Assembly: GCA_913065025.1 (NCBI GenBank)
Contig: CAJYAP010000004.1
Location: 1-53,262, forward strand
Length of the DNA: 53,262 nucleotides
Source of the DNA: an uncultured Gammaproteobacteria bacterium
Lineage (GTDB): Bacteria > Pseudomonadota > Gammaproteobacteria > Poriferisulfidales > GCA-002705445
Reading direction: 5' to 3'
Under the pieces are notes generated by a model. The model made no database searches. It worked only from the letters and a program-made list of their open reading frames with translations, and was not told where the DNA came from. Below, piece by piece: positions 3,158 to 51,870 of this stretch. A program made the position numbers and the translations under genes. Numbering within the stretch: position 1 is the stretch's first letter; the number at the start of each line of letters is the position of its first letter.

Positions 3158-4099
3158 ATGAATATTATTTTAGCCAATCCAAGAGGATTCTGTGCCGGTG
3201 TTGATAGAGCTATTGAAATTACTAATAGAGCTTTAGATGTTTTTGGATCTCCAATATATGTAAAACATGAAATTGTTCACAATAAGTATGTGGTAGATGA
3301 ACTTAAAGAAAAAGGGGTTATCTTTATTGAAGATATAAATAAAGTTCCAGAATATTCTATATTAATATATAGCGCACATGGTGTTTCAGAAAAAATAGTT
3401 CAAGAATCAAGTGATAGAAATCTTCAGGTTTTTAACGCCACCTGTCCTTTAGTTACAAAAGTTCATATGGAAGTTGCAAGATTATCAAAAAAACAAATAA
3501 ACACTATTTTAGTAGGTCATAAGGGGCATCCAGAAGTTGAAGGGACTATTGGGCGTTATAACTCAACAGAAAATTCTAAGATTATCCTGGTTGAAGATGA
3601 AAATGATGTAGCAAATCTTAAATTTAATACAGAAGATCAAGTTGCATATGTTACACAAACCACATTATCAATAGATGATACAGCTAGCATTATTAACGCA
3701 ATAAAATCTAAATATAATAAAATTATTGAACCACCTAGAGGCGATATTTGTTATGCAACTACTAACAGACAGAATGCTGTCAAAGAATTAACTGATAAGT
3801 GCGATATAATTCTTGTTGTAGGTTCTGAAAATAGTTCCAATTCAAATAGATTAAAAGAAATTTCAACCAGAGCTGGGGTACCTTCTTATTTAATAGATTG
3901 CGCTAATGATCTTGATGTAGAGTGGTTGTCGAACAAAAAGAACATAGGTTTAACTGCTGGGGCATCCGCACCTGAAACTCTAGTTGCGTCAATAATAAGT
4001 AAGCTTAAAGGTTTTGGCGCTTTAAACGTAATAGAATCTGAGGGCATTGAGGAAAACATCACTTTTAAAATACCTAAAGAGCTAATAAGTAAAAGCTAG
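3158..4099 (+). CDS. ispH: 4-hydroxy-3-methylbut-2-enyl diphosphate reductase
   Basis: PRGFCAGV, ATCPLV and DICYAT cluster cysteines; SSNSNRL. Confidence 0.98.
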   Translation: MNIILANPRGFCAGVDRAIEITNRALDVFGSPIYVKHEIVHNKYVVDELKEKGVIFIEDINKVPEYSILIYSAHGVSEKIVQESSDRNLQVFNATCPLVTKVHMEVARLSKKQINTILVGHKGHPEVEGTIGRYNSTENSKIILVEDENDVANLKFNTEDQVAYVTQTTLSIDDTASIINAIKSKYNKIIEPPRGDICYATTNRQNAVKELTDKCDIILVVGSENSSNSNRLKEISTRAGVPSYLIDCANDLDVEWLSNKKNIGLTAGASAPETLVASIISKLKGFGALNVIESEGIEENITFKIPKELISKS

Positions 4100-4188
4100 A
4101 TCATCCCTATGCCTGAAAGAGCAAAATAAACTGTCAAAACACAGATTATAATACCCAAAGATAATGCAACTACTCTAAAAATATCCAT
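4096..4188 (-). CDS. Small single-pass membrane peptide, 30 aa (MDIFRVVALSLGIIICVLTVYFALSGIGMI), not in ORF track
   Basis: Hand translation; AAAGGAG Shine-Dalgarno just upstream of ATG; extended -10 TGCTATTAT at 4224-4232; one hydrophobic helix. Confidence 0.65.
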   Translation of the reverse strand: MDIFRVVALSLGIIICVLTVYFALSGIGMI

Positions 4189-4250
4189 AATATCTCCTTT
4201 TAATTTTTGTTATTTTGACATAAATAATAGCATTTTTAAATTAAAATTTT

Positions 4251-5252
4251 TTAAGATATTAATTTTTTGACAATTTTTGCAGATGATATAGCTGTTAAAA
4301 TGCCATACCTATAATGACCAAAATTATAGATCAATCTTTCATTTTTAATATCAATATTTATATATGGATCTTCTTTATCTGAATATGGTCTGAATCCATA
4401 TGTCTGCTCAAGACTAAGCATTTCTACGCTATTAGAAAATATTTCTGAAACTGATTTTTCTAAAAATATTTTTGCAGAACTAGTAATATTCTCATCAAAT
4501 CCAACATCTTCTATCGTAGCACCAACAACTATTCTGTTATCTCTCCTAGGAATAATATAATAATTATTATAAAGCAACACATTGTCAATCAACTTTTCTC
4601 TTGTTTTAAAATGAAGAAGTTGTCCCTTTATAGGCTTTAATCTTATATTTTTATTACCTAAAATATGATTACTCCAAACTCCTGCGCATAAAATTATAAA
4701 TTCATACTTATTGTTTGATGGTTTTCTTAGAAAACTATCAATTTTCTCTATTTTAGACTTTTTAAATTCTACATTATTTTTTAAAAGTGTATTCCTTAGA
4801 AAATTAATTAACTTTCTAGGGTCTAATGTATTTATATTTTCTATTTCTAGAAAATTTTTGTGAGATTCTTTTATAAATTTTTCTCTAGAATTCAAATTTT
4901 TTTTTATGTAACTCGAATTAATAACAGGATTTTCCTTATACCAATTTTTTGCGCTTTCAATATCATTTCCAAAAATTAATAAATTTTTTTTTTCAAAATT
5001 AATTTCTCTTTTATCTTTTATGCTTAGCGTGTTAAAAAAATTATTGTACTGTTCGTGCCCAGAGATACATAAGTCTTGCATATACTTTGTGTTTTTCCAT
5101 GGATTAAGAGGAAACATTATCCCTGCTGCTGATTTTGATGCTTGCCCCGTGCTCTGATTATCTATTATTGTTACCTGATGGCCAGTTTTATTAAGTTCAT
5201 AGGCTGTTGTTAAACCAACTATTCCAGAACCTATAATTACACACTTGGTCAT
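4251..5252 (-). CDS. thiO: FAD-dependent oxidoreductase, glycine oxidase ThiO-like (DAO family)
   Basis: IIGSGIVG dinucleotide motif, ASKSAAG, PIKGQ, VVGAT, GFRP, GHYRxGIL; thiS/thiG are in the window. Confidence 0.7.
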   Translation of the reverse strand: MTKCVIIGSGIVGLTTAYELNKTGHQVTIIDNQSTGQASKSAAGIMFPLNPWKNTKYMQDLCISGHEQYNNFFNTLSIKDKREINFEKKNLLIFGNDIESAKNWYKENPVINSSYIKKNLNSREKFIKESHKNFLEIENINTLDPRKLINFLRNTLLKNNVEFKKSKIEKIDSFLRKPSNNKYEFIILCAGVWSNHILGNKNIRLKPIKGQLLHFKTREKLIDNVLLYNNYYIIPRRDNRIVVGATIEDVGFDENITSSAKIFLEKSVSEIFSNSVEMLSLEQTYGFRPYSDKEDPYINIDIKNERLIYNFGHYRYGILTAISSAKIVKKLIS

Positions 5253-6106
5253 TTTTTAACTAGCGTCCCTATACCTTCATTGGTAAATATTTCTAATAAT
5301 ACTGAATGCTGTATTCTTCCATCTACAATATGTGCCATTTTCACATTTTTTTCTATTGAATTTAAACATGCTTTTATTTTAGGAAGCATACCACCAGTTA
5401 TTACATTGGTATTTATTAATTTTTCAATTTCACTAAAATTCAAAGATGATATTAATTTTTCCTCTTTATTTAAAACACCTGTTTGATCAGTTAGAAATAT
5501 TAATTTCTCGGCAGATAAATGTGATGCTATAGCACTTGCAGCTGAGTCTGCATTTATATTGTAAATATTATTGTTTTCATCAAAACCCAATGGTGCGATC
5601 ACTGGTATGTAGTTTGAATTCATAAGTTCATATAGATAGTTTGCATCAACATCTATAATTTCTCCAACGTATCCGTAATTTGTTTTACCACTAATGTATT
5701 TTTTTACTTTTATTAATCCACTGTTATTTTTTGCTAAGCCTATGGAGTTACCCCCATTATTGTTTATTAGTCCCACAATTTCTTTATTCACCAAATCGTT
5801 TAATGTGTTTGATACAACTTCAATTGTTTTTTCATCAGTTACTCTTATACCATCTATAAAGTTTCTTTTTATTCCAACTTTGCTTAATTGGTTATCAATT
5901 TGTGGCCCGCCGCCATGAACAACGACAACATTTATTCCCACCTGTTTCATTAGCGCTATATCCCTAGCAAAACTATTTTTTAAATCACTCTCAACCATTG
6001 CTGCACCACCATATTTAACAACGCAAATTTTTTTTGAAAATTTTTGTATGTATGGAAGTGCTTCTGTTAAAATTTTTATTACTTGTTCTGCTTTATTTTT
6101 TTCCAT
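5249..6106 (-). CDS. argB: Acetylglutamate kinase
   Basis: VVKYGGAAM, VVVHGGGPQI, YNINAD, GGMLPK, EIFTxxGIGT. Confidence 0.97.
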   Translation of the reverse strand: MEKNKAEQVIKILTEALPYIQKFSKKICVVKYGGAAMVESDLKNSFARDIALMKQVGINVVVVHGGGPQIDNQLSKVGIKRNFIDGIRVTDEKTIEVVSNTLNDLVNKEIVGLINNNGGNSIGLAKNNSGLIKVKKYISGKTNYGYVGEIIDVDANYLYELMNSNYIPVIAPLGFDENNNIYNINADSAASAIASHLSAEKLIFLTDQTGVLNKEEKLISSLNFSEIEKLINTNVITGGMLPKIKACLNSIEKNVKMAHIVDGRIQHSVLLEIFTNEGIGTLVKK

Positions 6107-7487
6107 TTGGAATCTCTAATGTGGAATCAATATTAAGTATCTCACTTGTAAACTTGTCTTGTATTTCTTTCAACTCTTCTTCTGTATTAGCTTCAAATCT
6201 CATAACTAAACATGGAGTTGTGTTAGAAGCTCTTACTAATCCCCATCCATTTTTGAAATCTGCTCTTAAACCATCAATTTTAGAAATTTCTGCTCCATCA
6301 AAATTTACTTTGCTGCAGAATTTTTTCATAAATTCATGCTGATTACCATCTTTATCAACTTTTATATTTATTTCTGGAGTGGAATAAGAAGATGGTAATT
6401 CGTCGAATATTTCACTGCTTTTCTTATTTTCATTTGATATTATTTCGAGCATTCTTAAACTAGCATATATTCCATCATCAAACCCAAACCATCTATCCTT
6501 GAAAAATATATGTCCTGACATTTCTCCACCTAATATAGCGTTAATCTCTTTCATCTTCATCTTAATATATGAATGTCCTGTTCTAGACATTACCGGTATA
6601 CCTCCATACTCTTTTATATATATGGGTAAATCTTTTGATGATTTAACATCAAAAACAATTTTTTCATTTGCATTTTTTGACAAAATATTTTTAGAGTAAA
6701 GCATCATTTGTCTATCAGGCCATAGAATATTTCCTAAATTATCTATTATCAAACATCTATCACCATCACCATCAAATGCGACTCCTATATCGCATTTATT
6801 TTCTTTAACAGACGATATTAAATTAATTAGATTTTTTGGCTCACTAGGATTTGGGTGATGATTTGGAAAATTTCCATCTATATCGCAATATAAATCTATA
6901 ACCTCAAGACCTAATTTTTTATAAATTTTTAGAGAGATTGGTCCTGCTGCACCATTACCTGCATCAATAGCTACTTTTAATTTTTTGTTAATTTTTATGT
7001 CCTTTAATATAGCTTCTAGATAATTCTTTTCTATATTTATTTTCTCTTCACCTACTTCTGAATTCTTATTTATTTTTTTTAAATTTTTGCTTAAAATTTT
7101 ATTGTATATATTTTGGATTTCTTCACCAGCTAGAGCGTGGTTGTCCATAATAATTTTTAAACCATTGTAATTTTTTGGATTATGACTCCCTGTAACAATA
7201 ATTCCTGAATTGACCTTGAAGTAATTTACTGCAAAATATAAAAGTGGTGTTGGGACTTGGCCAATGTCTATAACTTTTTTCCCACTTTCTAACAGCCCTC
7301 TAATTAATGTATTAGATATAGCTTCGCTTGATAGTCTTCCATCTCTGCCAACAACTATTATGTCATTATCTTTTTGGTATAGATCACTTAAAGATCTTGC
7401 TATTAAGTCTATAGATTCTAGAGTTAGTTCTTTTTTATAGATCCCTCTAATATCATAAGCCTTGAATATTGTTTTTAATACTTTCAT
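6093..7487 (-). CDS. algC: Phosphomannomutase/phosphoglucomutase
   Basis: IFKAYDIRG, TGSHNP phosphoserine loop, FDGDGDR, GEMSGH, RASNT; dut-algC-argB synteny. Confidence 0.93.
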   Translation of the reverse strand: MKVLKTIFKAYDIRGIYKKELTLESIDLIARSLSDLYQKDNDIIVVGRDGRLSSEAISNTLIRGLLESGKKVIDIGQVPTPLLYFAVNYFKVNSGIIVTGSHNPKNYNGLKIIMDNHALAGEEIQNIYNKILSKNLKKINKNSEVGEEKINIEKNYLEAILKDIKINKKLKVAIDAGNGAAGPISLKIYKKLGLEVIDLYCDIDGNFPNHHPNPSEPKNLINLISSVKENKCDIGVAFDGDGDRCLIIDNLGNILWPDRQMMLYSKNILSKNANEKIVFDVKSSKDLPIYIKEYGGIPVMSRTGHSYIKMKMKEINAILGGEMSGHIFFKDRWFGFDDGIYASLRMLEIISNENKKSSEIFDELPSSYSTPEINIKVDKDGNQHEFMKKFCSKVNFDGAEISKIDGLRADFKNGWGLVRASNTTPCLVMRFEANTEEELKEIQDKFTSEILNIDSTLEIPNGKK

Positions 7488-7489
7488 TA

Positions 7490-7948
7490 TTAGTTTTTTC
7501 CGCTATGACCAAATCCACCTGATGCTCTATCAGTGGATTCAAAGTTATCTACAAAAGTATATTCAATATTTACTACAGGTATAAGCATAAATTGTGCAAT
7601 TCTATCACCTGGATTAATTTGAAAATTATTATCACTATTATTAAATAAAGATACCATCAGCTCTCCTTGGTAATCAGAGTCAATTAATCCAATAGAATTT
7701 CCTAAGATAATCCCATGTTTGTGGCCTAAGCCAGATCTGGGAAGTATTATTCCTGCATATTTTTTGTCTTCGATATAGAAAGCTAGCCCCGTCGGAATTA
7801 AAGTAGTACTTTTTGGAGCAAGCTCGATTTTTTCATCAACACATGCCCTCAAATCCATTGCTGCTGAGCCCTCTGTAGCATAACTTGGTAATGGTATGTC
7901 TTCATTAATCTTAGAATTTAAAATCTTTACTTGTACTTTTTTTGACAT
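7490..7948 (-). CDS. dut: dUTP diphosphatase
   Basis: [37 protein letters not shown]. Confidence 0.98.
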
Positions 7949-19456: not shown

Positions 19457-20863
19457 ATGTCAGATATAATGAAAACAATAAAGGAGAATGACGTCAAATT
19501 TGTTGATTTGAGATTCACTGATACAAAAGGCAAAGAACAACATGTAACAATTCCCGTAGGCGCAGTAGAAGAATCTTTATTCGAAGATGGTAAAATGTTT
19601 GATGGTTCTTCGATTGCTGGCTGGAAAGCAATTAATGAGTCAGATATGATCCTTATGCCAGATGTTGACACAGCAGTTATGGACCCATTCTTCAGTGATC
19701 CAACTTTAACAGTTAGGTGTAATATTCTTGAGCCTAGTACTGGAGAAGGATACAGTCGTGACCCAAGATCTATTGCTAATAGAGCTGAAAAATATTTAGT
19801 AGACTCCGGTATCGCAGACACAGCTTATTTTGGCCCTGAGCCAGAATTTTTTATATTTGATTCAGTTACTTATGGTAATGAAATCGGAGAATCGTTTTAT
19901 AGAGTTGAGTCAGAAGAGGGTTGTTTTAGCTCTGGAGAACAATACGAAGATGGAAACACTGGTCATAGACCAGGGGTTAAAGGGGGTTATTTTCCTGTGC
20001 CACCAGTTGATTCTTTCCAAGATATTCGTTCTGCAATGTGCAACGTTCTCGAAGAAATGGGTGTAGAAACTGAAGTGCATCATCATGAAGTTGCAACTGC
20101 TGGACAATGTGAAATCGCAACCAAGTTCGACACAATGGTAAAAAGAGCAGATAAAAACCAAGTGATGAAATATGTAATACACAATGTGGCTCATAATTAT
20201 GGAAAAACAGCTACATTTATGCCTAAACCTATTATTAATGATAATGGTAATGGTATGCACGTACATCAATCATTATTTCTAAATGGAGAAAATTTATTTT
20301 TAGGTAATAAATATGGTGGTTTATCAAAACTTGCCCTACATTATATCGGTGGAATTATAAAACATGCAAAAGCTATAAATGCTTTCTCTAACGCAGCTAC
20401 AAATAGTTATAAAAGACTAGTGCCAGGTTTTGAAGCTCCAACTATTTTAACTTATTCTGCTAAAAATAGATCTGCAAGCATAAGAATTCCTTATGTTGCG
20501 AATGACAAAGCTAGACGAATTGAAGTAAGGTTCCCTGACGCATGTGGAAATCCTTATCTTACATTTACAGCGCTAATGATGGCTGGGCTTGATGGGATTA
20601 AAAATCAAATAGATCCAGGACCAAATATGGATATTGATCTGTTTGATGATCTTAGTCCCGAAGACGAAGCTAAAATTCCTCATGTATGTTCTTCTCTTGA
20701 TGAAGCTCTGAAGTCTTTAGATGAAGACAGAGAATTTTTAAAAGCAGGTGGCGTTTTTGATGACGATACAATAGATGCATATATAGCTCTTAAGATGGAG
20801 GAAGTGCAAGCTTTTCAAGCCAATACTCATCCACTAGAGTTTGAAATGTACTATAGCTTATAA
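19457..20863 (+). CDS. glnA: Glutamine synthetase type I
   Basis: [58 protein letters not shown]. Confidence 0.99.
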
Positions 20864-20874
20864 TAGTTACTTTA

Positions 20875-20897
20875 TAACGCTCTTTTACAGGGCGTTA
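20875..20897 (+). terminator. Stem-loop after glnA (weak terminator or stabiliser)
   Basis: TAACGCTCT-TTTAC-AGGGCGTTA, a 9-bp stem with one G-U; short U tail. Confidence 0.55.
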
Positions 20898-20907
20898 CTT
20901 CAAAAAA

Positions 20908-20952
20908 ATAATGCACTTTTATAGTGCATTATCAATTGCCTTACTATACAAT
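20908..20952 (+). promoter_or_regulatory. NtrC box overlapping the -35 of a putative sigma70 ntrB promoter
   Basis: ATAATGCAC-TTTTATA-GTGCATTAT (TGCAC-N7-GTGCA with palindromic flanks); GTGCAT-17 nt-TACAAT. Confidence 0.82.
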
Positions 20953-20958
20953 TAGTAA

Positions 20959-22056
20959 ATGACTCATTTTACAAATAAGAATAATAAAGAAATAAAAGCA
21001 TTTAATTTTATAGAAATGGACTTTAATATCTTAGATAATATTTCGACATCTATAATAATCACCAATAAATTTATGGAGATTGTTCATGTCAACGCTTCAG
21101 GCGAAAATTTTCTTAGTAATAGTAAAGCTAACCTAACAAATGTAAAAATTTCTGAGATTTTTGCAAAAAAAAATAATATTATTCTAAGCCAGGTTTATGA
21201 TGCTATTGCTTTAAATCAGTCATCGGTTTCTAGGGATATTGAGGTTTCTTTAAGGAATAAATCCAAGGAGAGGTTGGACTGCAATGTTCAGACTATTTTT
21301 GCAAATGAAGAAAAGTATGTCTTGCTTGAGATTAATACAGTTCAAAGGCAAAAAAATATAATAAATAATTCAGATTATATGGATAGAAGTAACGCAACTC
21401 AAATGATAACGAGATCTATAGCCCATGAGATAAAAAATCCATTAGGTGGCATAAAAGGTGCTGCACAGTTACTCGAAAATGAAATAAGTGAAGAACATAA
21501 AGATTACATAGAAATAATTATTAATGAAGTTGATAGATTAAAAAATTATATAGATAAAATGGTTGGCCCAAGAAATGAACCTGCTTTTAAATCTGTAAAT
21601 ATCCATTCAATAATTGAAAGAGTGCTACAAATATCTAGCGCCAAAATAAAAATAAAAAATACTTTCAAGAGGGACTTCGACCCTAGCATCCCAGATGTAA
21701 TTGTTGATGAAGATATGATAATCCAGTCTTTATTAAATATAGTAAAAAACGCTCAAGAAGCTATTACGACTAAAGGTGAAATTGAATTAAAAACAAGAGT
21801 TGAGAGAAATTATACTATAAATTCTATAAAGCATAAGTTGGTAGTCATAATAAGCGTTATTGATAGTGGTATTGGAGTTAGTGATGAAATTAAAAATAAA
21901 TTATTTTTACCTTTGGTAACTGATAAAACACAAGGTTCTGGTTTAGGACTTTCTATATCTCAAAGATTAGTATCTCTCAACAATGGGATAATCGTTTTTG
22001 AAGAATTCCAAAATAAAACAATATTTAAAATTATTTTACCTATTGAGAATCATTAA
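20959..22056 (+). CDS. ntrB: Nitrogen regulation sensor kinase (PAS + HisKA + HATPase); start may be 21016 (MDFNIL)
   Basis: AHEIKNPLGGIKGAAQLL H-box, FKRDFDPSIPD, QGSGLGL; glnA-ntrB-ntrC order. Confidence 0.95.
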   Translation: MTHFTNKNNKEIKAFNFIEMDFNILDNISTSIIITNKFMEIVHVNASGENFLSNSKANLTNVKISEIFAKKNNIILSQVYDAIALNQSSVSRDIEVSLRNKSKERLDCNVQTIFANEEKYVLLEINTVQRQKNIINNSDYMDRSNATQMITRSIAHEIKNPLGGIKGAAQLLENEISEEHKDYIEIIINEVDRLKNYIDKMVGPRNEPAFKSVNIHSIIERVLQISSAKIKIKNTFKRDFDPSIPDVIVDEDMIIQSLLNIVKNAQEAITTKGEIELKTRVERNYTINSIKHKLVVIISVIDSGIGVSDEIKNKLFLPLVTDKTQGSGLGLSISQRLVSLNNGIIVFEEFQNKTIFKIILPIENH

Positions 22057-22057
22057 T

Positions 22058-23455
22058 ATGGATAACTTAAAAAATATATTCGTTATAGACGATGATAAAT
22101 CAATAAGATGGGTCTTAGAAAAAGCTCTTACAAAAAAAGGTTTTAATGTTTTTTGTTATAAAACATCTGAAGATATGATTAATGCCTTAGAAGAGGTGGT
22201 GCCAAATGTTATTATTTCTGATGTAAGAATGCCGGGGCTTAGCGGAATTGATTTATTAGACAAAATTAAAAGAGAATACCCGTCTATACCTATAATTATA
22301 ATGACTGCATTTTCAGATATGGAAACTACTGTAGATTCTTTAAAAAAAGGGGCATATGACTTCGTAACCAAACCATTTGATATTAATGAAGTTACTGCTC
22401 TTATTGATAAAGCCCATAAAAATTCATTCAATAATAATTTTTCAGAAAAAATAGAACCGTCTAAAAATGTTAGTAAAATTATTGGTACTTCAGAGTCCAT
22501 GCAAACTATATATAAATCTATTGGAAAAATTGCTCAAACTGATATCGAGGTTTTAATACTTGGAGAAACCGGCACAGGTAAAGAGTTAATAGCCAAAGCA
22601 ATACATGATAATAGTGCTAGAAAAGATAAGCCTTTCATTGCCATTAATACTGGTGCAATACCAACTGAGCTTCTTGAATCAGAATTATTTGGGCATGAAA
22701 AAGGATCTTTTACAGGTGCTTATAATCAAAGAATTGGTAGATTTGAGCAAGCCTCAGATGGAACCTTGTTTTTAGATGAAATTGGAGATATGCCACTGGA
22801 TGTCCAAACAAGATTATTAAGAGTATTACAAGAAGGGGAATTCTTCAGAGTTGGTGGTTCAAAGTCAATTAAAGTAAAAACTAGAATCATCACCGCGACA
22901 CATAAAAATCTTAAATCGCTTGTGAATAAAGAAATTTTTAGAGAAGACCTTTTACATAGAATAAATGCCGTTAAAATTGAATTGCCAAATTTAAAAAACA
23001 GGAAGTCTGATATTATCAATTTAGCAGAGCACTTTATGCGATATTATTCTCAAGAATATAAATCCTCATTAAAAGTTCTAAATGACGATGTCAAAAAGGT
23101 TTTTCTAAAATATGATTGGCCAGGGAATATTAGAGAGCTACAAAACGTATGTAAGTATCTTTCCGTAATGTCCGTAAATTCAGATGTAGTAGTTGCAGAT
23201 TTACCAAGGGAATTAGTGAATGAAGGAATAGATTCTAATATCAATATAAATTGGGAAGAGGTATTCGAATCATGGATTCTTAGTGAGTTTAATAAAGATT
23301 CTAAAGATATTTCAAAAAATATTGATAGTATTTATGAATCTATACTTATTAAGTCTGCATTAACGTTATCTGAGGGAAATAAAACGGAAGCAGCGAGAAT
23401 ATTAGGTTGGGGAAGAAATACGATATCAAATAAAATGAAATCTATTGAGAAATAA
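22058..23455 (+). CDS. ntrC: Nitrogen regulation response regulator, sigma54 activator
   Basis: SDVRMPG receiver, GETGTGKE, ELFGHEKGSFTGA, WPGNIRELQN, AARILGWGRNT HTH. Start moved to MDNL at 22058. Confidence 0.96.
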   Translation: MDNLKNIFVIDDDKSIRWVLEKALTKKGFNVFCYKTSEDMINALEEVVPNVIISDVRMPGLSGIDLLDKIKREYPSIPIIIMTAFSDMETTVDSLKKGAYDFVTKPFDINEVTALIDKAHKNSFNNNFSEKIEPSKNVSKIIGTSESMQTIYKSIGKIAQTDIEVLILGETGTGKELIAKAIHDNSARKDKPFIAINTGAIPTELLESELFGHEKGSFTGAYNQRIGRFEQASDGTLFLDEIGDMPLDVQTRLLRVLQEGEFFRVGGSKSIKVKTRIITATHKNLKSLVNKEIFREDLLHRINAVKIELPNLKNRKSDIINLAEHFMRYYSQEYKSSLKVLNDDVKKVFLKYDWPGNIRELQNVCKYLSVMSVNSDVVVADLPRELVNEGIDSNININWEEVFESWILSEFNKDSKDISKNIDSIYESILIKSALTLSEGNKTEAARILGWGRNTISNKMKSIEK

Positions 23456-46727: not shown

Positions 46728-47246
46728 TTATTGTCTATCAATATTTTTCTGTAATATAAAATTCTTTAGCATTTGCTTTTTCATAGCTTCGGAGAGAATT
46801 TTCTTAAGCTCTATACATGTGTAAGCATTTATGACATTTTTATCATATAAGCTAACTTTAAGATTTTTTTTATCAAATTTTAATTTGACTTCATTGTTTA
46901 TAATTTCTTCGCTAAAGTCTTTTGTAGAATAAAAACTTCCCATATTGAAAGAATTTTTTATTATATTATCTTCAATATAAATACTGTTTCCGTTATCCCA
47001 TTTATCACTTTTATATATTAAACCTATTTTATTTTCAGATTGAATCAAACTTATATCTTTATTAGCTTTATAGTTTTTTCTCTGGTCGGTACTAGGTTTT
47101 AAATTACATGAATAAAATTCACCTTTTGAAAATGAATTTAATATATTATTTAAATTTTTTTTATCTGTATACTCATATTGTTCAGTACAGCCTAATATAC
47201 TCATTAATAAAATTGAATAAATTATAATTTTTGTATTCCTTATCAT
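46728..47246 (-). CDS. Hypothetical lipoprotein
   Basis: Lipobox ILLMSILG-C after a basic N-terminus. Confidence 0.6.
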   Translation of the reverse strand: MIRNTKIIIYSILLMSILGCTEQYEYTDKKNLNNILNSFSKGEFYSCNLKPSTDQRKNYKANKDISLIQSENKIGLIYKSDKWDNGNSIYIEDNIIKNSFNMGSFYSTKDFSEEIINNEVKLKFDKKNLKVSLYDKNVINAYTCIELKKILSEAMKKQMLKNFILQKNIDRQ

Positions 47247-47267
47247 TATATAATCCTTTTTTAATTT

Positions 47268-47816
47268 TCATTCATCAAAAGATATCTCTTTAACATATAT
47301 TTTTGCTTTATAATCTTTACCATAAGCAACAATGCCAATTGATTTTATATTTTTAGAATTTATTGTACTTGCTTGAAATGCTCCTGATTTTTTGAATTTT
47401 TTTATTGGTAAAATGAATTCTTTATATTTTTCTTCAACAGTAAAGCTATGTTGATAATACTGCCAGGGTAATATTGTCCCTGTCGTTCTCAAATGTACGA
47501 AATATTTTTCATTATTTCCTTTTGCAATAATTTTTATATTATTTACTCCGTCCAATGTAATTCCTTTCATATTTCTTCTGAACTGTATAAACCCACCATT
47601 ATTTTCTGTAGAGACATTACCTGATAAATGTGCAATTGACTGACCCTCTATAATTGAAAAATCAATTGAACCTGTTGAAACACCGCCCATAACATTATCT
47701 GATATAAATTTCCATTGAGATGGGTCTTGAAAATTATCTTTATAAAGGCTTCCAGCAAAAGTTTTTTGATTCATAATTATTATACAAAATATCAGAAGTA
47801 ATATTATTTTTTTCAT
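47268..47816 (-). CDS. CIA30/NDUFAF1 family protein with signal peptide
   Basis: W.FISDNVMGGVS, G.VSTENNGGF, WQYY, FILP...FK. Confidence 0.88.
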   Translation of the reverse strand: MKKIILLLIFCIIIMNQKTFAGSLYKDNFQDPSQWKFISDNVMGGVSTGSIDFSIIEGQSIAHLSGNVSTENNGGFIQFRRNMKGITLDGVNNIKIIAKGNNEKYFVHLRTTGTILPWQYYQHSFTVEEKYKEFILPIKKFKKSGAFQASTINSKNIKSIGIVAYGKDYKAKIYVKEISFDE

Positions 47817-47856
47817 GTCATCAATATAGCAAAGTATTAATACTTCTTACAGTAGC

Positions 47857-47873
47857 TTGGCATGTATATTGCA
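47857..47873 (+). promoter_or_regulatory. sigma54 (-24/-12) promoter upstream of the glucosylglycerate cluster
   Basis: TTGGCATG-TATA-TTGCA, one mismatch to TGGCACG-N4-TTGCW. Confidence 0.75.
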
Positions 47874-47889
47874 TTTACAAGGATGTAGT

Positions 47890-47997
47890 ATGAATTCTAT
47901 AGCTGAGATTCGTCCTTTTTTCCTATTTCCCCTCTCAGCCTATAGAATTCTTCTTTCAGCATATTCTATTTATTATTTCTTGCGAAGAAGATACTAA
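47890..47997 (+). CDS. Putative 35-aa hydrophobic peptide (MNSIAEIRPFFLFPLSAYRILLSAYSIYYFLRRRY)
   Basis: AAGGA SD 6 nt before ATG; overlaps the hairpin, so it may be non-coding. Confidence 0.35.
   Translation: MNSIAEIRPFFLFPLSAYRILLSAYSIYYFLRRRY
47892..47950 (+). other. Long inverted repeat/hairpin: 17-bp stem with 1-nt bulge and 24-nt pyrimidine loop
   Basis: GAATTCTATAGCTGAGA ... TCTCAGCCTATAGAATTC. Confidence 0.8.
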
Positions 47998-48045
47998 TGA
48001 TTAATATGATAGAATAAAAAATTACTAGCTAACAATATAAACTTA

Positions 48046-48888
48046 ATGACATATAAAATTAAAAATTTATGCGCTCTAATTTTTACAGATCTTGATGCAT
48101 CGTTCCTTAATAAAAGTAATTTTTCTTTTGGTAATAACATGAATATTACAAAAAAAATTTTCAAGGATGACAATTTTGTAATATTTAATACTAGTAAAAC
48201 ATTTATTGAATTAAATTATTTTTTCCAACAACAATCATACGATTTACCATTTATATGTGAAAATGGGGGCGGAATATATTCTCCTAAAAGATACTTCAAC
48301 AATGCTGCTCATACAAGAGATGGATATAATGTTATCTTCGAGTCAACCAAAATAAATAAAAAAATAAGTAAAATTAAGAGAGCTATTCTTCAAATATTTG
48401 GAGAACATTGTACTTTTTATAACGACCTCAACGATTTTGAGAAACAAAAATTCTCTGGTCTTAATGAGAAAGAATTAATGAATGCTTCGCGCAGAGAATT
48501 TACTGAGTTAATAATATGGAAATCAGATTATGAAAATCTTATTAAATTTAATGATTATTTGCATACTCATGACCTGAAAATTATTAAAGGGGGGAGATTT
48601 CACCATATATCAAATAATATAAATAAAGGAATATCCATGCTTAGACTTGTCAATGAATATAAAAAATATTACCCTAGTAAAAAATTTGTCACTATTGCAA
48701 TTGGGGATAGTGAGAACGACTTAGAGATGCTTAACTGCGTTGACTATCCTTGTTTAGTTAAAAGTAACGATAGTCAAACTTTTATAAAAAATATTAAATC
48801 TAGTAATTTATTTATTAGCGATAGAGAAGCGCCTGAAGGCTGGGAAGATTGTGTAAATCAGGCATTCGAGCAGATAAGGAGGCAATAA
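48046..48888 (+). CDS. Glucosyl/mannosyl-3-phosphoglycerate phosphatase (HAD-IIB)
   Basis: IFTDLD, NTSKT, ICENGG, RREFTE, GGRF.H, GDSENDLEML. Confidence 0.9.
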   Translation: MTYKIKNLCALIFTDLDASFLNKSNFSFGNNMNITKKIFKDDNFVIFNTSKTFIELNYFFQQQSYDLPFICENGGGIYSPKRYFNNAAHTRDGYNVIFESTKINKKISKIKRAILQIFGEHCTFYNDLNDFEKQKFSGLNEKELMNASRREFTELIIWKSDYENLIKFNDYLHTHDLKIIKGGRFHHISNNINKGISMLRLVNEYKKYYPSKKFVTIAIGDSENDLEMLNCVDYPCLVKSNDSQTFIKNIKSSNLFISDREAPEGWEDCVNQAFEQIRRQ

Positions 48889-50102
48889 TGGCTGATTTTC
48901 ATCAAAATGGTGTAGTAAGTACACTGCATAATATTTCAAATAGGTCAGCAGAAGATCTTGAAAAGGAGCTTATTGTCTTTTCAAAAAAAAGACCAATTGA
49001 TTTAATTTTGCCATCTTTATATTCAGAAATAGAGGGTCCTGCTTTAAAAAATATTATTAATATATTATCTAAAGTTAAATATTTGAATCACATCACAATT
49101 GGATTAGACAAAGCTGATAATAAACAATTTATAAAGGCAAAAGAATTTTTTTCTAATTTAAATCAGCCACATTCTGTGATCTGGAATGATGGCCCACGTA
49201 TGAAAGCCCTTGATAACGAATTAAATAAAAAAGGGTTGGCGCCTGGTGAATCAGGTAAAGGAAAAAACGTATGGTATTGCATGGGCTATGTACTTGCACG
49301 TGATGAAGCAAGATCTATCGCGTTGCATGATTGCGATATTTTAACTTATGATAAAGAATTGCTAGCTAGGCTGGTTTATCCAGTTGCAAACCCTCTTTTT
49401 AATTACGAATTTTGTAAAGGATACTATCCAAGAGTAGGTAACAATAAACTAAATGGAAGAGTGACTAGACTACTAGTAACTCCATTACTAAAAGCACTCA
49501 AAAAGGTTTTAGGCCCAAGAGAATATATAGAATTTATTGATGTTTTTAGATATCCATTAGCTGGAGAATTTTCTTTTAGAAGTAGAATGCTTAAGGAATT
49601 AAGAATCCCAAGCGACTGGGGCCTTGAAATAGGAATCTTGTCTGAGATGCAGCGAAATCACGCTCAAAATAGAATATGCCAAGTTGATATTGCAAAAATA
49701 TATGACCACAAACATCAAGAAATTTCTTTAAAAGATAAAGAAAAAGGACTATCTAAAATGTCTATTGATATTTCAAAAACATTAATTAGAAAACTTGCTG
49801 CTCAAGGAGATACTTTTACATCAAATAACTTAAGGACAATTAAAGCGACCTACTACAGAACAGCTTTGGATCTTCTTGAAATATACCATAACGACGCAAA
49901 GCTAAACGGTTTAGATATAAATATTAATGATGAAGAAATAATGATTGAAATGTTTGCAAACAATATTATCATCGCTGGACAGGAGTTTTTAAATAAACCA
50001 AATCATAATCCATTAACACCGAATTGGAATAGAGTTCAAAATACTTTACCCGACTTTAAAGATAAGTTTATCCAAGCAGTCGACGAAGATTCAAAAATTT
50101 AG
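48888..50102 (+). CDS. gpgS: Glucosyl-3-phosphoglycerate synthase-type glycosyltransferase
   Basis: MADFHQNG..TLH, LILPSLYSE, GKGKNVW, HDCDI, RYPLAGEF, DWGLEIG; AGGAGG SD. Confidence 0.85.
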   Translation: MADFHQNGVVSTLHNISNRSAEDLEKELIVFSKKRPIDLILPSLYSEIEGPALKNIINILSKVKYLNHITIGLDKADNKQFIKAKEFFSNLNQPHSVIWNDGPRMKALDNELNKKGLAPGESGKGKNVWYCMGYVLARDEARSIALHDCDILTYDKELLARLVYPVANPLFNYEFCKGYYPRVGNNKLNGRVTRLLVTPLLKALKKVLGPREYIEFIDVFRYPLAGEFSFRSRMLKELRIPSDWGLEIGILSEMQRNHAQNRICQVDIAKIYDHKHQEISLKDKEKGLSKMSIDISKTLIRKLAAQGDTFTSNNLRTIKATYYRTALDLLEIYHNDAKLNGLDININDEEIMIEMFANNIIIAGQEFLNKPNHNPLTPNWNRVQNTLPDFKDKFIQAVDEDSKI

Positions 50103-50121
50103 TTATAATAAGAGAATAAAG

Positions 50122-51870
50122 ATGCTTGATAGTAAAAGTTTTTCAATAAGATTAGAACAACATCTAGTAAAAATATATGGTGGAGTAAAAACAACAAAAG
50201 AGATAAAACAAGTTTCCAATGATTTGTTAGTGTTTATTGAATCTAAATTTAGTAAGAATCCTCCAAAATTTTTAAATAACGTAAGTAAATGGTCTGAAAA
50301 AGATACTATTTTAATATCATATCCAAATTCTATAGTTGAAAACAAAAGAAAGCCTTTATCTACATTAAAAAAATTTTTAGATAAACATTGTATGAATATG
50401 GTTTCAATTATTCATATTTTACCTTTTTTCCCCTCAAGCTCAGACCAAGGTTTTTCAGTTAAAGATTATTATTCTGTTGATAAAAATTTTGGTTCTTGGG
50501 ATGACATTAAGAGAATAAGTCAAAAATTTTCAGTCATGGGTGATGTAGTATTAAATCATGGCTCATCAAAAAGTAAATGGTTTGAAAACTTCTTAAATGG
50601 AAGTGGCCCAGGCTCAAAATATTTTTTAACTGCTGATAAGAATCTTGATTTATCAACGGTCACTAGGCCAAGAACGAGTGATTTACTTTCAAAAGTAGAT
50701 ACTGCAAATGGTGAAAAATATGTTTGGTGTACTTTTAGCGAAGACCAAGTTGATTATGATTTTGAAAATTTCGAAGTTTTAAAAGAATTTATATCTATAA
50801 TAACTTTTTATCTAGAAAACGGTATATCAGTTTTTAGATTTGATGCTGTTGCATTTTTATGGAAAAAAATTGGCACAGGCTGTGTAAATCTTCCAGAAAC
50901 ACATGAAATAGTCCGGCTTTTTAGAACAATATTAGACTATTTGGCGCCTAGTGCGATATTGGTAACGGAAACAAACACCCCAGCAAGAGAGAACGTCACT
51001 TATTTTGGTAACGCAAATGAGGCTCATTGGATCTATAATTTTTCGTTACCTCCAATTTTAATATATACGGTTCTTAAAGGCGATTCTTCGTATCTCGAAA
51101 AATTAACCATGAGTCTGCCGCCTGCACAATTAGGAGCATCATATCTCAATTTTGTTGCTTCCCATGATGGCATTGGACTTAGGCCTATTGAAGGAATGAT
51201 GAGTAAAAGTGAAATAAATAAGCTTATTAATAAAATGAAAAATAATGGTGGTGAAATTTCATATAGAATAAATAAAGATAATAAGGAATCTCCTTATGAA
51301 ATTAATATTTCACTTTTTGATGCTATGCAGGAGACACTAAATGGAAATGAAGATTTCCATTTTGATAGATTTTTATGCATACATATAATTATGCTATCTC
51401 TTGAGGGTGTGCCTGCTTTTTATATTCACAGCCTATTCGGAACAAAAAATGATCAAAATCTTTATTCCAAAACTAATAAAAAAAGAGACCTAAACAGACA
51501 TGTTTTTGAAATTGATAACCTAAAGAAAATTATTGACGATGAAAATAATCATGGAAGTTTTATTTTTTATAAATTAAAAAATCTAATTGCTATTAGAAAA
51601 AAGCAAACAGCCTTCCATCCAAATGCTGTGCAATTTACGCTTCATTTAGGTAAAAACTTTTATGGTGTATGGAGACAAAGTTTAGACAAATCTCAAAGCA
51701 TTTTTTGCATAACAAATGTAACAGATGAAAATAGAGAATTCTCTTTAATGGACATTAACTTAATAGGTTTTGATCAGTGGAGAGATTTAATTAGCAATAA
51801 AACTTTATCTGATATTCATTCAAAAATTACATTAAAACCTTACCAAACAATTTGGGTTAGTAATAAATGA
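50122..51870 (+). CDS. GH13_18 phosphorylase, probably glucosylglycerate phosphorylase
   Basis: HILPFFP, RFDAVAFLWK nucleophile, TETN acid/base, ASHDGIG, YEIN loop. Confidence 0.85.
   Translation: MLDSKSFSIRLEQHLVKIYGGVKTTKEIKQVSNDLLVFIESKFSKNPPKFLNNVSKWSEKDTILISYPNSIVENKRKPLSTLKKFLDKHCMNMVSIIHILPFFPSSSDQGFSVKDYYSVDKNFGSWDDIKRISQKFSVMGDVVLNHGSSKSKWFENFLNGSGPGSKYFLTADKNLDLSTVTRPRTSDLLSKVDTANGEKYVWCTFSEDQVDYDFENFEVLKEFISIITFYLENGISVFRFDAVAFLWKKIGTGCVNLPETHEIVRLFRTILDYLAPSAILVTETNTPARENVTYFGNANEAHWIYNFSLPPILIYTVLKGDSSYLEKLTMSLPPAQLGASYLNFVASHDGIGLRPIEGMMSKSEINKLINKMKNNGGEISYRINKDNKESPYEINISLFDAMQETLNGNEDFHFDRFLCIHIIMLSLEGVPAFYIHSLFGTKNDQNLYSKTNKKRDLNRHVFEIDNLKKIIDDENNHGSFIFYKLKNLIAIRKKQTAFHPNAVQFTLHLGKNFYGVWRQSLDKSQSIFCITNVTDENREFSLMDINLIGFDQWRDLISNKTLSDIHSKITLKPYQTIWVSNK

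Follow-up and report, generated by a model that had tools for sequence, protein, structure and literature searches.

A conserved hairpin with a CU-rich loop in the leader of a predicted sigma54-dependent operon of marine Gammaproteobacteria, with a possible part in gating translation

The stretch of DNA analysed here (the window; 53,262 nt from an uncultured gammaproteobacterium) encodes a sigma54-type promoter and a hairpin that directly head the glucosylglycerate genes (48046..51870), with a CIA30-domain gene divergently oriented on the other side (Table 1). The promoter, TTGGCAT-GTATA-TTGCA, is a near-consensus -24/-12 element, with the spacing of TGGCAC-N5-TTGCW. Transcription is predicted to start near 47884, and the stem of the hairpin (P1) begins 8 nt later, at +9. 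The leader of the window is about 160 nt long and untranslated, and it ends at a start codon that lacks a Shine-Dalgarno (SD) sequence.

Table 1. Coordinates of the promoter, leader elements and flanking genes in the window
Feature	Position	Strand	Evidence or remark
CIA30-domain gene, divergent	47268..47816	-	conserved left-hand neighbour
sigma54-type promoter: -24 TTGGCAT (GG 47859-60), -12 TTGCA (GC 47871-72)	47857..47873	+	sequence read
Single-stranded 5' segment before P1 in the predicted transcript	47884..47891	+	alignments; 8 nt here, 13 nt in relatives
P1 5' arm, GAATTCTATAGCTGAGA	47892..47908	+	fold, pair counts; G47902 is the 5' partner in the compensatory pair
CU-rich 24-nt loop	47909..47932	+	sequence read; purine depletion
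P1 3' arm, TCTCAG-C-CTATAGAATTC	47933..47950	+	bulged C47939; C47940 pairs with G47902
Non-conserved leader remainder, to the phosphatase start codon	47951..48045	+	without similarity to relatives more than ~5 nt past the stem
MPGP-family HAD phosphatase	48046-48888	+	Pfam, NCBIfam scans
Glucosyl-3-phosphoglycerate synthase (GpgS)	48888 (probable start) to 50102	+	Pfam, NCBIfam scans
Sucrose-phosphorylase-like GH13	50122-51870	+	Pfam, NCBIfam scans

The genes glnA, ntrB and ntrC were identified at 19457-23455 of the window. NtrC (21998-23455; TIGR01818, above the cut-off) is the only clear enhancer-binding protein of the genome, and the promoter motif TTGGCAT-N5-TTGCATTT is invariant in the 38 homologous copies described below. 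We infer that the operon would be under NtrC/sigma54 control, with transcription from this promoter and with the start site and strand given above. The gene rpoN is present in 9 of the 12 genus genomes searched (including G002 and G009), Hfq is encoded in 14 of 15, and CsrA genes also exist in the genus. Genes for rpoN, csrA and hfq were not detected in the 83%-complete assembly that contains the window; most genomes of the genus carry all three, and incompleteness is probably the reason rather than loss. No NtrC-site motif shared among the sigma54-like promoters of the genome was found by eye. A match to an IHF-like site, WATCAANNNNTTR, occurs at ~47829-47848 of the window and at ~1483-1500 of L009, reading TATCAAAGTATTA in G002 and G009 and AGCAA in the window, with a palindrome of 14 bp, AAGTATTAATACTT, nearby. 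Both are about 10-30 bp upstream of the -24 element and neither is conserved in copies of the G012 type.

A preliminary description of this DNA had placed a 17-bp stem about 8 nt after the predicted sigma54 start and given the sequence of its loop, and on both points the sequence and the RNA fold agree. P1 comprises 17 bp and one bulged C (47939) on the plus strand. Its 24-nt loop, TTCGTCCTTTTTTCCTATTTCCCC (also written UUCGUCCUUUUUUCCUAUUUCCCC), is 92% pyrimidine (13 U, 9 C, 1 A and 1 G). P1 alone has a predicted folding energy of -19.2 kcal/mol, only 0.04% of all 59-nt segments of the 53 kb fold as stably, and RNAfold includes P1 in both the minimum free energy (MFE) and the centroid structure. 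By these predictions the hairpin is far from a chance feature, and is exceptional for AT-rich DNA. The whole 175-nt stretch around it is only mildly better folded than shuffled sequences (z = -1.9 on the plus strand and -0.6 on the minus strand). The second stem that had been proposed, between 47949-47956 (TCTTCTTT) and 47984-47991 (GAAGAAGA), does consist of complementary segments, but it is absent from the MFE and centroid structures, overlaps the last 2 nt of P1 and lies in an unconserved region, and we do not retain it. Thus, the folding signal is that of one hairpin and not of an extended structure. The sequence UUACAAGGAUGU (47875-47886), which straddles the predicted +1, matches the CsrA SELEX consensus RUACARGGAUGU at 11 of 12 positions; it occurs in no relative, and the match is probably due to chance.

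The hairpin is single-copy in its own 0.98-Mb assembly, as determined by BLAST. When the 53 genomes of the order were searched with a covariance model made from nine homologues, 4 of them had exactly one copy each, and these are the four species known to carry it; a filter-free scan of the window with this model gave no further copy. The sole additional match (E = 0.0025) falls inside a coding, uppP-like gene and is spurious. A MITE or other dispersed repeat, which the preliminary description had named among the grounds for rejection, is ruled out by one copy per genome, as is a REP element. Searches of Rfam at E <= 10 with positions 47000-49000 of the window and with the leader of G009 returned chance matches only, and none to the glutamine riboswitch (RF01739), in line with the earlier impression that no known riboswitch is present. 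We also considered a remnant of the glutamine aptamer in the loop (CGUUCA) or in the 5' flank (UCGUAGCG) and rejected it; the pieces are not collinear, and the model gives no match. No terminator-like site was found in 47500-48300, and P1 itself is unlike an intrinsic terminator or attenuator, with an AU-rich stem and base, a loop of 24 nt (24-28 nt among all copies) and no clean U-tract. Being single-copy and having neither an Rfam family nor a terminator, the element is thus neither a repeat nor a stand-alone sRNA gene.

Among 60 related genomes searched by BLAST, the promoter and hairpin were also recovered from three species of the genus (G002, G009 and G012). The stem is palindromic, so the BLAST loci of two relatives were misoriented; they aligned cleanly once re-oriented. 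From metagenome contigs, a promoter-anchored pattern scan gave 7 marine copies and exact-protein look-ups gave 27 more. The total is 38 copies, 18 of them distinct, with 34 from marine metagenome contigs. In all 38 copies, the CIA30-domain gene is on the left, divergently oriented. In G009, G012 and all metagenome copies but one (L032), 4 nt separate the hairpin from a purine-rich SD that is followed by an ATG, the SD being GGGAAAAGGA or AGGAAGGGGA depending on the lineage. The first gene in these copies encodes a 468-aa circularly permuted ATP-grasp protein (PF14403), and an alpha-E gene comes next wherever the contig extends so far. In both G009 and G012 the ATP-grasp and alpha-E genes are followed by a transglutaminase-like gene and then by the HAD phosphatase; GpgS and the sucrose-phosphorylase-like gene come after the phosphatase in G009, and the contig of G012 stops within the phosphatase.

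Two of these loci have unusual coding sequences. In L032 (2041-2180, minus strand), ATA replaces the ATG of the ATP-grasp gene and GGTT replaces GGAT in the SD, with the frame still open; a rare start codon, decay of the gene or a sequencing error could each account for this variant. In G009 (L148, G009:C2:492000-501700, reverse strand, ~3934-7782), the phosphatase, GpgS and phosphorylase genes are in seven fragments with internal stops, which are either pseudogenes or errors of long-read assembly.

The window locus lacks the ATP-grasp, alpha-E and transglutaminase genes together with their initiation region. No decayed ATP-grasp initiation region is recognisable in the window leader, where identity to the relatives more than 5 nt past the stem (~33%) is random for the composition. 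The three genes are also gone from G002, which has kept the SD, the ATG and a 32-codon remnant (MYNKIYAKSEKSV vs MYNEVYTKSKIRV). In the outgroups G004 and G007, the CIA30 gene directly adjoins the 148-aa gene that follows the glucosylglycerate genes in the window. Thus, the whole cassette is an insertion specific to the four-species clade. The lineage of the window may have lost the trio or never have had it, and two events are needed either way.

Among the four lineages, the CIA30, phosphatase and ATP-grasp genes share only ~32-65% identity at third-codon and four-fold sites, which is near saturation, whereas the promoter and leader are ~90% identical among the same lineages. Thus, selection on the leader is strong. 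Across the 38 copies (18 distinct), the 36 stem positions show only three changes. A compensatory double change converts an A-U pair, found in all relatives, to G47902-C47940 in the window; one stem A-U is G.U in G002; and the closing pair is either U-A or U.G. The bulged base differs freely among lineages (C, T or A), the arms are 24, 27 or 28 nt apart, and the window has a 5-nt deletion in its 5' single-stranded segment relative to the other lineages. The examination of homologues for covariation that had been recommended at the outset therefore yields a conserved helix with one compensatory change. The formal signal is weak, given this single pair and an observed score reached by 53 of 500 shuffles.

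The one-sided changes are of the wobble type, producing G.U on the plus strand and C.A on the minus strand, and in combination with the varying loop length they favour an RNA. We therefore favour an RNA helix on the plus strand as the likely nature of the element, over a DNA operator or a minus-strand RNA. An inverted repeat recognised as DNA, either by a dimeric regulator or as a downstream NtrC site on the sigma54 promoter, would agree with the near-invariance of both 18-bp arms and with the ~40 bp between the CIA30 start and the -24 element, which leave little space for an upstream enhancer. However, with spacings of 24, 27 and 28 bp the half-sites would differ in rotation by roughly a third of a turn, the arms are unequal because of the bulge, and the one-sided changes break the symmetry of the DNA while keeping G.U on the plus strand. 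The arms are also unlike the NtrC consensus (TGCACC-N5-GGTGCA), and we consider a DNA operator very improbable.

Conservation of coding sequence is scarcely credible as an explanation. A 35-codon open reading frame from the ATG at 47890 does traverse the hairpin, and the 3-nt deletion in the window's loop is in frame, as expected of a leader peptide. Against this, the corresponding frames of the relatives begin with GTG and have no SD, the AAGGA that could serve as an SD lies upstream of the predicted +1, and a 1-nt insertion in copies of the G009 type shifts the frame to a stop at codon 20. Substitutions do not follow a 3-nt period, and conservation is higher in the stems than in the loop.

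The window itself is informative about what is selected. Relative to the consensus, its stem has substitutions at 2 of 34 positions, both in one pair, and its loop at 11 of 24 (Fisher p = 0.0008). Only 2 of the 24 loop positions are purines (p = 4e-5 against the composition of the window). Thus, selection acts on the pairing within P1 and on a CU-rich loop composition, and not on the exact loop sequence. On this comparative evidence, the hairpin in the window is a real, selected leader element.

The CU-rich loop had been described as resembling an anti-SD sequence, and in the relatives it is indeed complementary to the SD and start codon just downstream. The complementarity of the loop of the ATP-grasp type (UACACCGUUCAUUUCCUUUUUCCCCCA) extends over the SD, the AUG and codons 2-6 of the ATP-grasp gene. 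Duplexes of the relatives' loops with their initiation regions are predicted at -13.4 to -17.8 kcal/mol (p = 0.002-0.1), and composition-preserving shuffles average -8.6 to -10.1 kcal/mol (sd about 2.6-3.1). When the 5' arm is blocked, the relatives' leader refolds to an SD-masking helix of -13.0 to -17.3 kcal/mol, compared with -17.3 to -18.1 kcal/mol for P1 alone. In G002 the SD-masking alternative is the MFE structure, and the ensemble probability that the SD is unpaired is 0.28-0.66 in the relatives. A pseudoknot containing P1 and the loop:SD pairing together was considered and rejected, as the SD would need to contact the loop's 3' end at the far end of P1, and the linker of 3-4 nt cannot span an 18-bp helix. 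With so short a linker from the foot of the helix to the SD, P1 and the loop:SD pairing are thus mutually exclusive.

We propose that the element forms the 5' leader of a plus-strand transcript from an NtrC/sigma54-dependent operon, and that this leader folds as P1 with an anti-SD loop. With P1 formed, the ribosome site would be free; with P1 opened, the loop would sequester the SD, the start codon and the first codons. In the full operon of the sister species, P1 would in this way gate translation of the ATP-grasp gene. A two-state translational gate in the full operon, in addition to a residual role in the window, is the reading that we adopt tentatively from these predicted structures, with a chance of being correct that falls a little short of even. 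Several points count against it. The complementarity of CU-rich to GA-rich sequence is partly compositional, two SD variants occur without matching changes in the loop, and the alternative helix of the G009 type is weaker. P1, being transcribed first, would normally win kinetically. The near-invariant sequence of the stem, beyond its pairing, also hints at a sequence-specific recognition that the gate leaves unexplained.

Alternatively, P1 may be a determinant of stability or processing, as a site for RNase III or a dsRNA-binding factor or as a 5' shield, with the SD complementarity incidental or used for tuning. The stem sequence and pairing are kept in the window although the initiation region is absent, and the retention of 32 of 34 stem positions where synonymous sites are saturated suggests recognition of the helix itself. 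P1 also lies only 8-13 nt from the predicted 5' end. In E. coli ompA, however, protective 5' hairpins must be within ~0-4 nt of the 5' end, so 8-13 unpaired nt before P1 are more than a shield of that kind allows. This explanation would also leave unaccounted for both the selection for a C-rich, purine-poor loop and an SD complementarity above that of shuffles. We regard it as unlikely, if deserving of serious consideration.

In another view, the stem displays the C-rich, G-poor loop as a rut site on which Rho would load, or as a platform for ribosomal protein S1 or Hfq, so that transcriptional read-through or the recruitment of ribosomes would be coupled to first-gene translation. Of the loop positions 9 are C and 1 is G, where C makes up 15% of the genome, the loop's composition and not its sequence is kept in the window, the leader there is untranslated over its ~160 nt and leads to an SD-less start, and Hfq is encoded nearly throughout the genus. 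Rho loading usually involves rut sites of 70-80 unstructured nt, compared with 24-28 nt here, and this role is rather improbable.

Returning to the proposed gate, its counterpart in the window must be considered separately. The window loop pairs no better than shuffles with the leader remainder or with the three glucosylglycerate initiation regions (p = 0.36-0.69). With the initiation region of the G012 type it has a predicted pairing of -14.5 kcal/mol (p = 0.03). P1 and the loop composition are conserved in the window without a cis partner, and thus the gate cannot be the whole function; selection there without the lost initiation region implies some role that does not need that region. Candidates for this role may be transcript stability or processing (RNase III), loading of Rho, S1 or Hfq on the C-rich loop, or a partner in trans. 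Target predictions from the window genome alone would mislead, as the obvious target is absent there.

A partner in trans raises the question of an sRNA. The preliminary description had offered an sRNA and a new cis element as alternatives, and had pointed to GGA motifs on the opposite strand as a possible means of CsrA titration. The cis half fits the observations, and a discrete sRNA of 70-110 nt does not, as there is no terminator and the element always heads an operon. The same two facts count against a trans-acting sRNA derived from the 5' UTR with an SD-pairing loop, even though the CU-rich loop is maintained in the window without a cis partner and both CsrA and Hfq genes exist in the genus. 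A minus-strand CsrA sponge with a GGA loop is contradicted by the substitution pattern, in which the one-sided changes that are G.U on the plus strand are C.A mismatches on the minus strand and so are incompatible with pairing there. Such a sponge would also be a single hairpin, not a multi-GGA array of the CsrB/RsmZ type, and has no Rfam match. For either form of trans-acting RNA we see a very slim chance.

The gene that would be gated may be tied to nitrogen status in more than one way. The phosphatase and ATP-grasp genes co-occur in the same 5 of 17 genomes of the family, and G002, in which the trio was lost, has the phosphatase only. This suggests a functional link between the two genes. 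They form one co-oriented operon in G009 and G012 (L148 and L150), and are divergent neighbours on a riboswitch-type contig (L151). On SAR11-type and other alphaproteobacterial contigs, the orthologues of the ATP-grasp gene are preceded by RF01739 (59-62 bits), which is itself followed by a CU-rich anti-SD:SD hairpin (L057, L058, L065 and L078, ~1404-1462; L151, 2395-2500; L154, ~2400-2500). As judged from gene context, the glutamine riboswitch is a second, independent tie of the ATP-grasp/alpha-E/transglutaminase module to nitrogen status.

In other gammaproteobacterial genomes from metagenomes, in G014 and in a second copy within the genome of the window, the ATP-grasp gene follows a sigma54 promoter, with only a short leader between them or no leader at all. 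This second copy (contig C14:4578-6024; L147) is more distant, at 61% identity to the G009 protein; its own sigma54-type promoter (TGGTACAAAGCTTGCA) is followed by a short leader that has a strong SD and lacks the hairpin. In three contigs of uncultured gammaproteobacteria (L069, L071 and L073), a sigma54-type promoter, TGGTAYATAWYTTGCA, lies ~28 nt before the ATP-grasp ATG, and the mRNA would have no leader or almost none. In L071 and L073 this promoter comes directly after the 3' end of a 16S rRNA gene and a tRNA gene. A bolder proposal is that the hairpin leader stands in for the glutamine riboswitch at this operon as a new class of riboregulator responding in trans, so that a protein, sRNA or metabolite reporting nitrogen or osmotic status would bind the invariant stem or the loop and flip the leader from P1 to the SD-masking fold or back. 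A second, gene-independent role would be kept and would account for the element's persistence where the gated gene is missing; we consider this a long shot.

If the gate operates as proposed, a streamlined clade of marine Gammaproteobacteria would add a post-transcriptional gate to NtrC/sigma54 control, and what is gated would be an uncharacterised ATP-grasp/alpha-E/transglutaminase module joined to the synthesis of glucosylglycerate, a nitrogen-free osmolyte. Two unrelated RNA devices on one gene would point to a nitrogen-linked function of the module and offer a tractable handle on it.

The element seems to be a leader motif that has not been described before and is confined to one clade; its mechanism would be of a familiar kind. 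It is abundant in marine metagenomes and phylogenetically narrow. It shares with sRNAs of the RsaE/RoxS type and with CsrB/RsmZ sponges a pyrimidine-rich UCCC/UCCU loop on a stem, and differs from them in being a single hairpin, without its own terminator or an Rfam match, that is always at the 5' end of an mRNA. Two-state translational leaders include riboswitch expression platforms, RNA thermometers and leaders of the E. coli adhE type, which need remodelling to free the ribosome-binding site. Like these, the element of the relatives has exclusive pairings of similar predicted energy, one of which covers the SD and start codon; unlike these, it persists in genomes without the gated gene. A close parallel is with the glutamine riboswitch platform (RF01739) of the SAR11 type, which precedes the same gene family (74-78% identical proteins) and likewise has a CU-rich anti-SD shortly before a purine-rich SD and ATG TAT/TTT AAT GAA. 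In contrast to that platform, whose anti-SD is 8-10 nt away from the SD, the element has no aptamer and carries its anti-SD in a loop closed by an 18-bp stem. Both are linked to nitrogen status, which in the hairpin leader would be sensed through the NtrC/sigma54 promoter.
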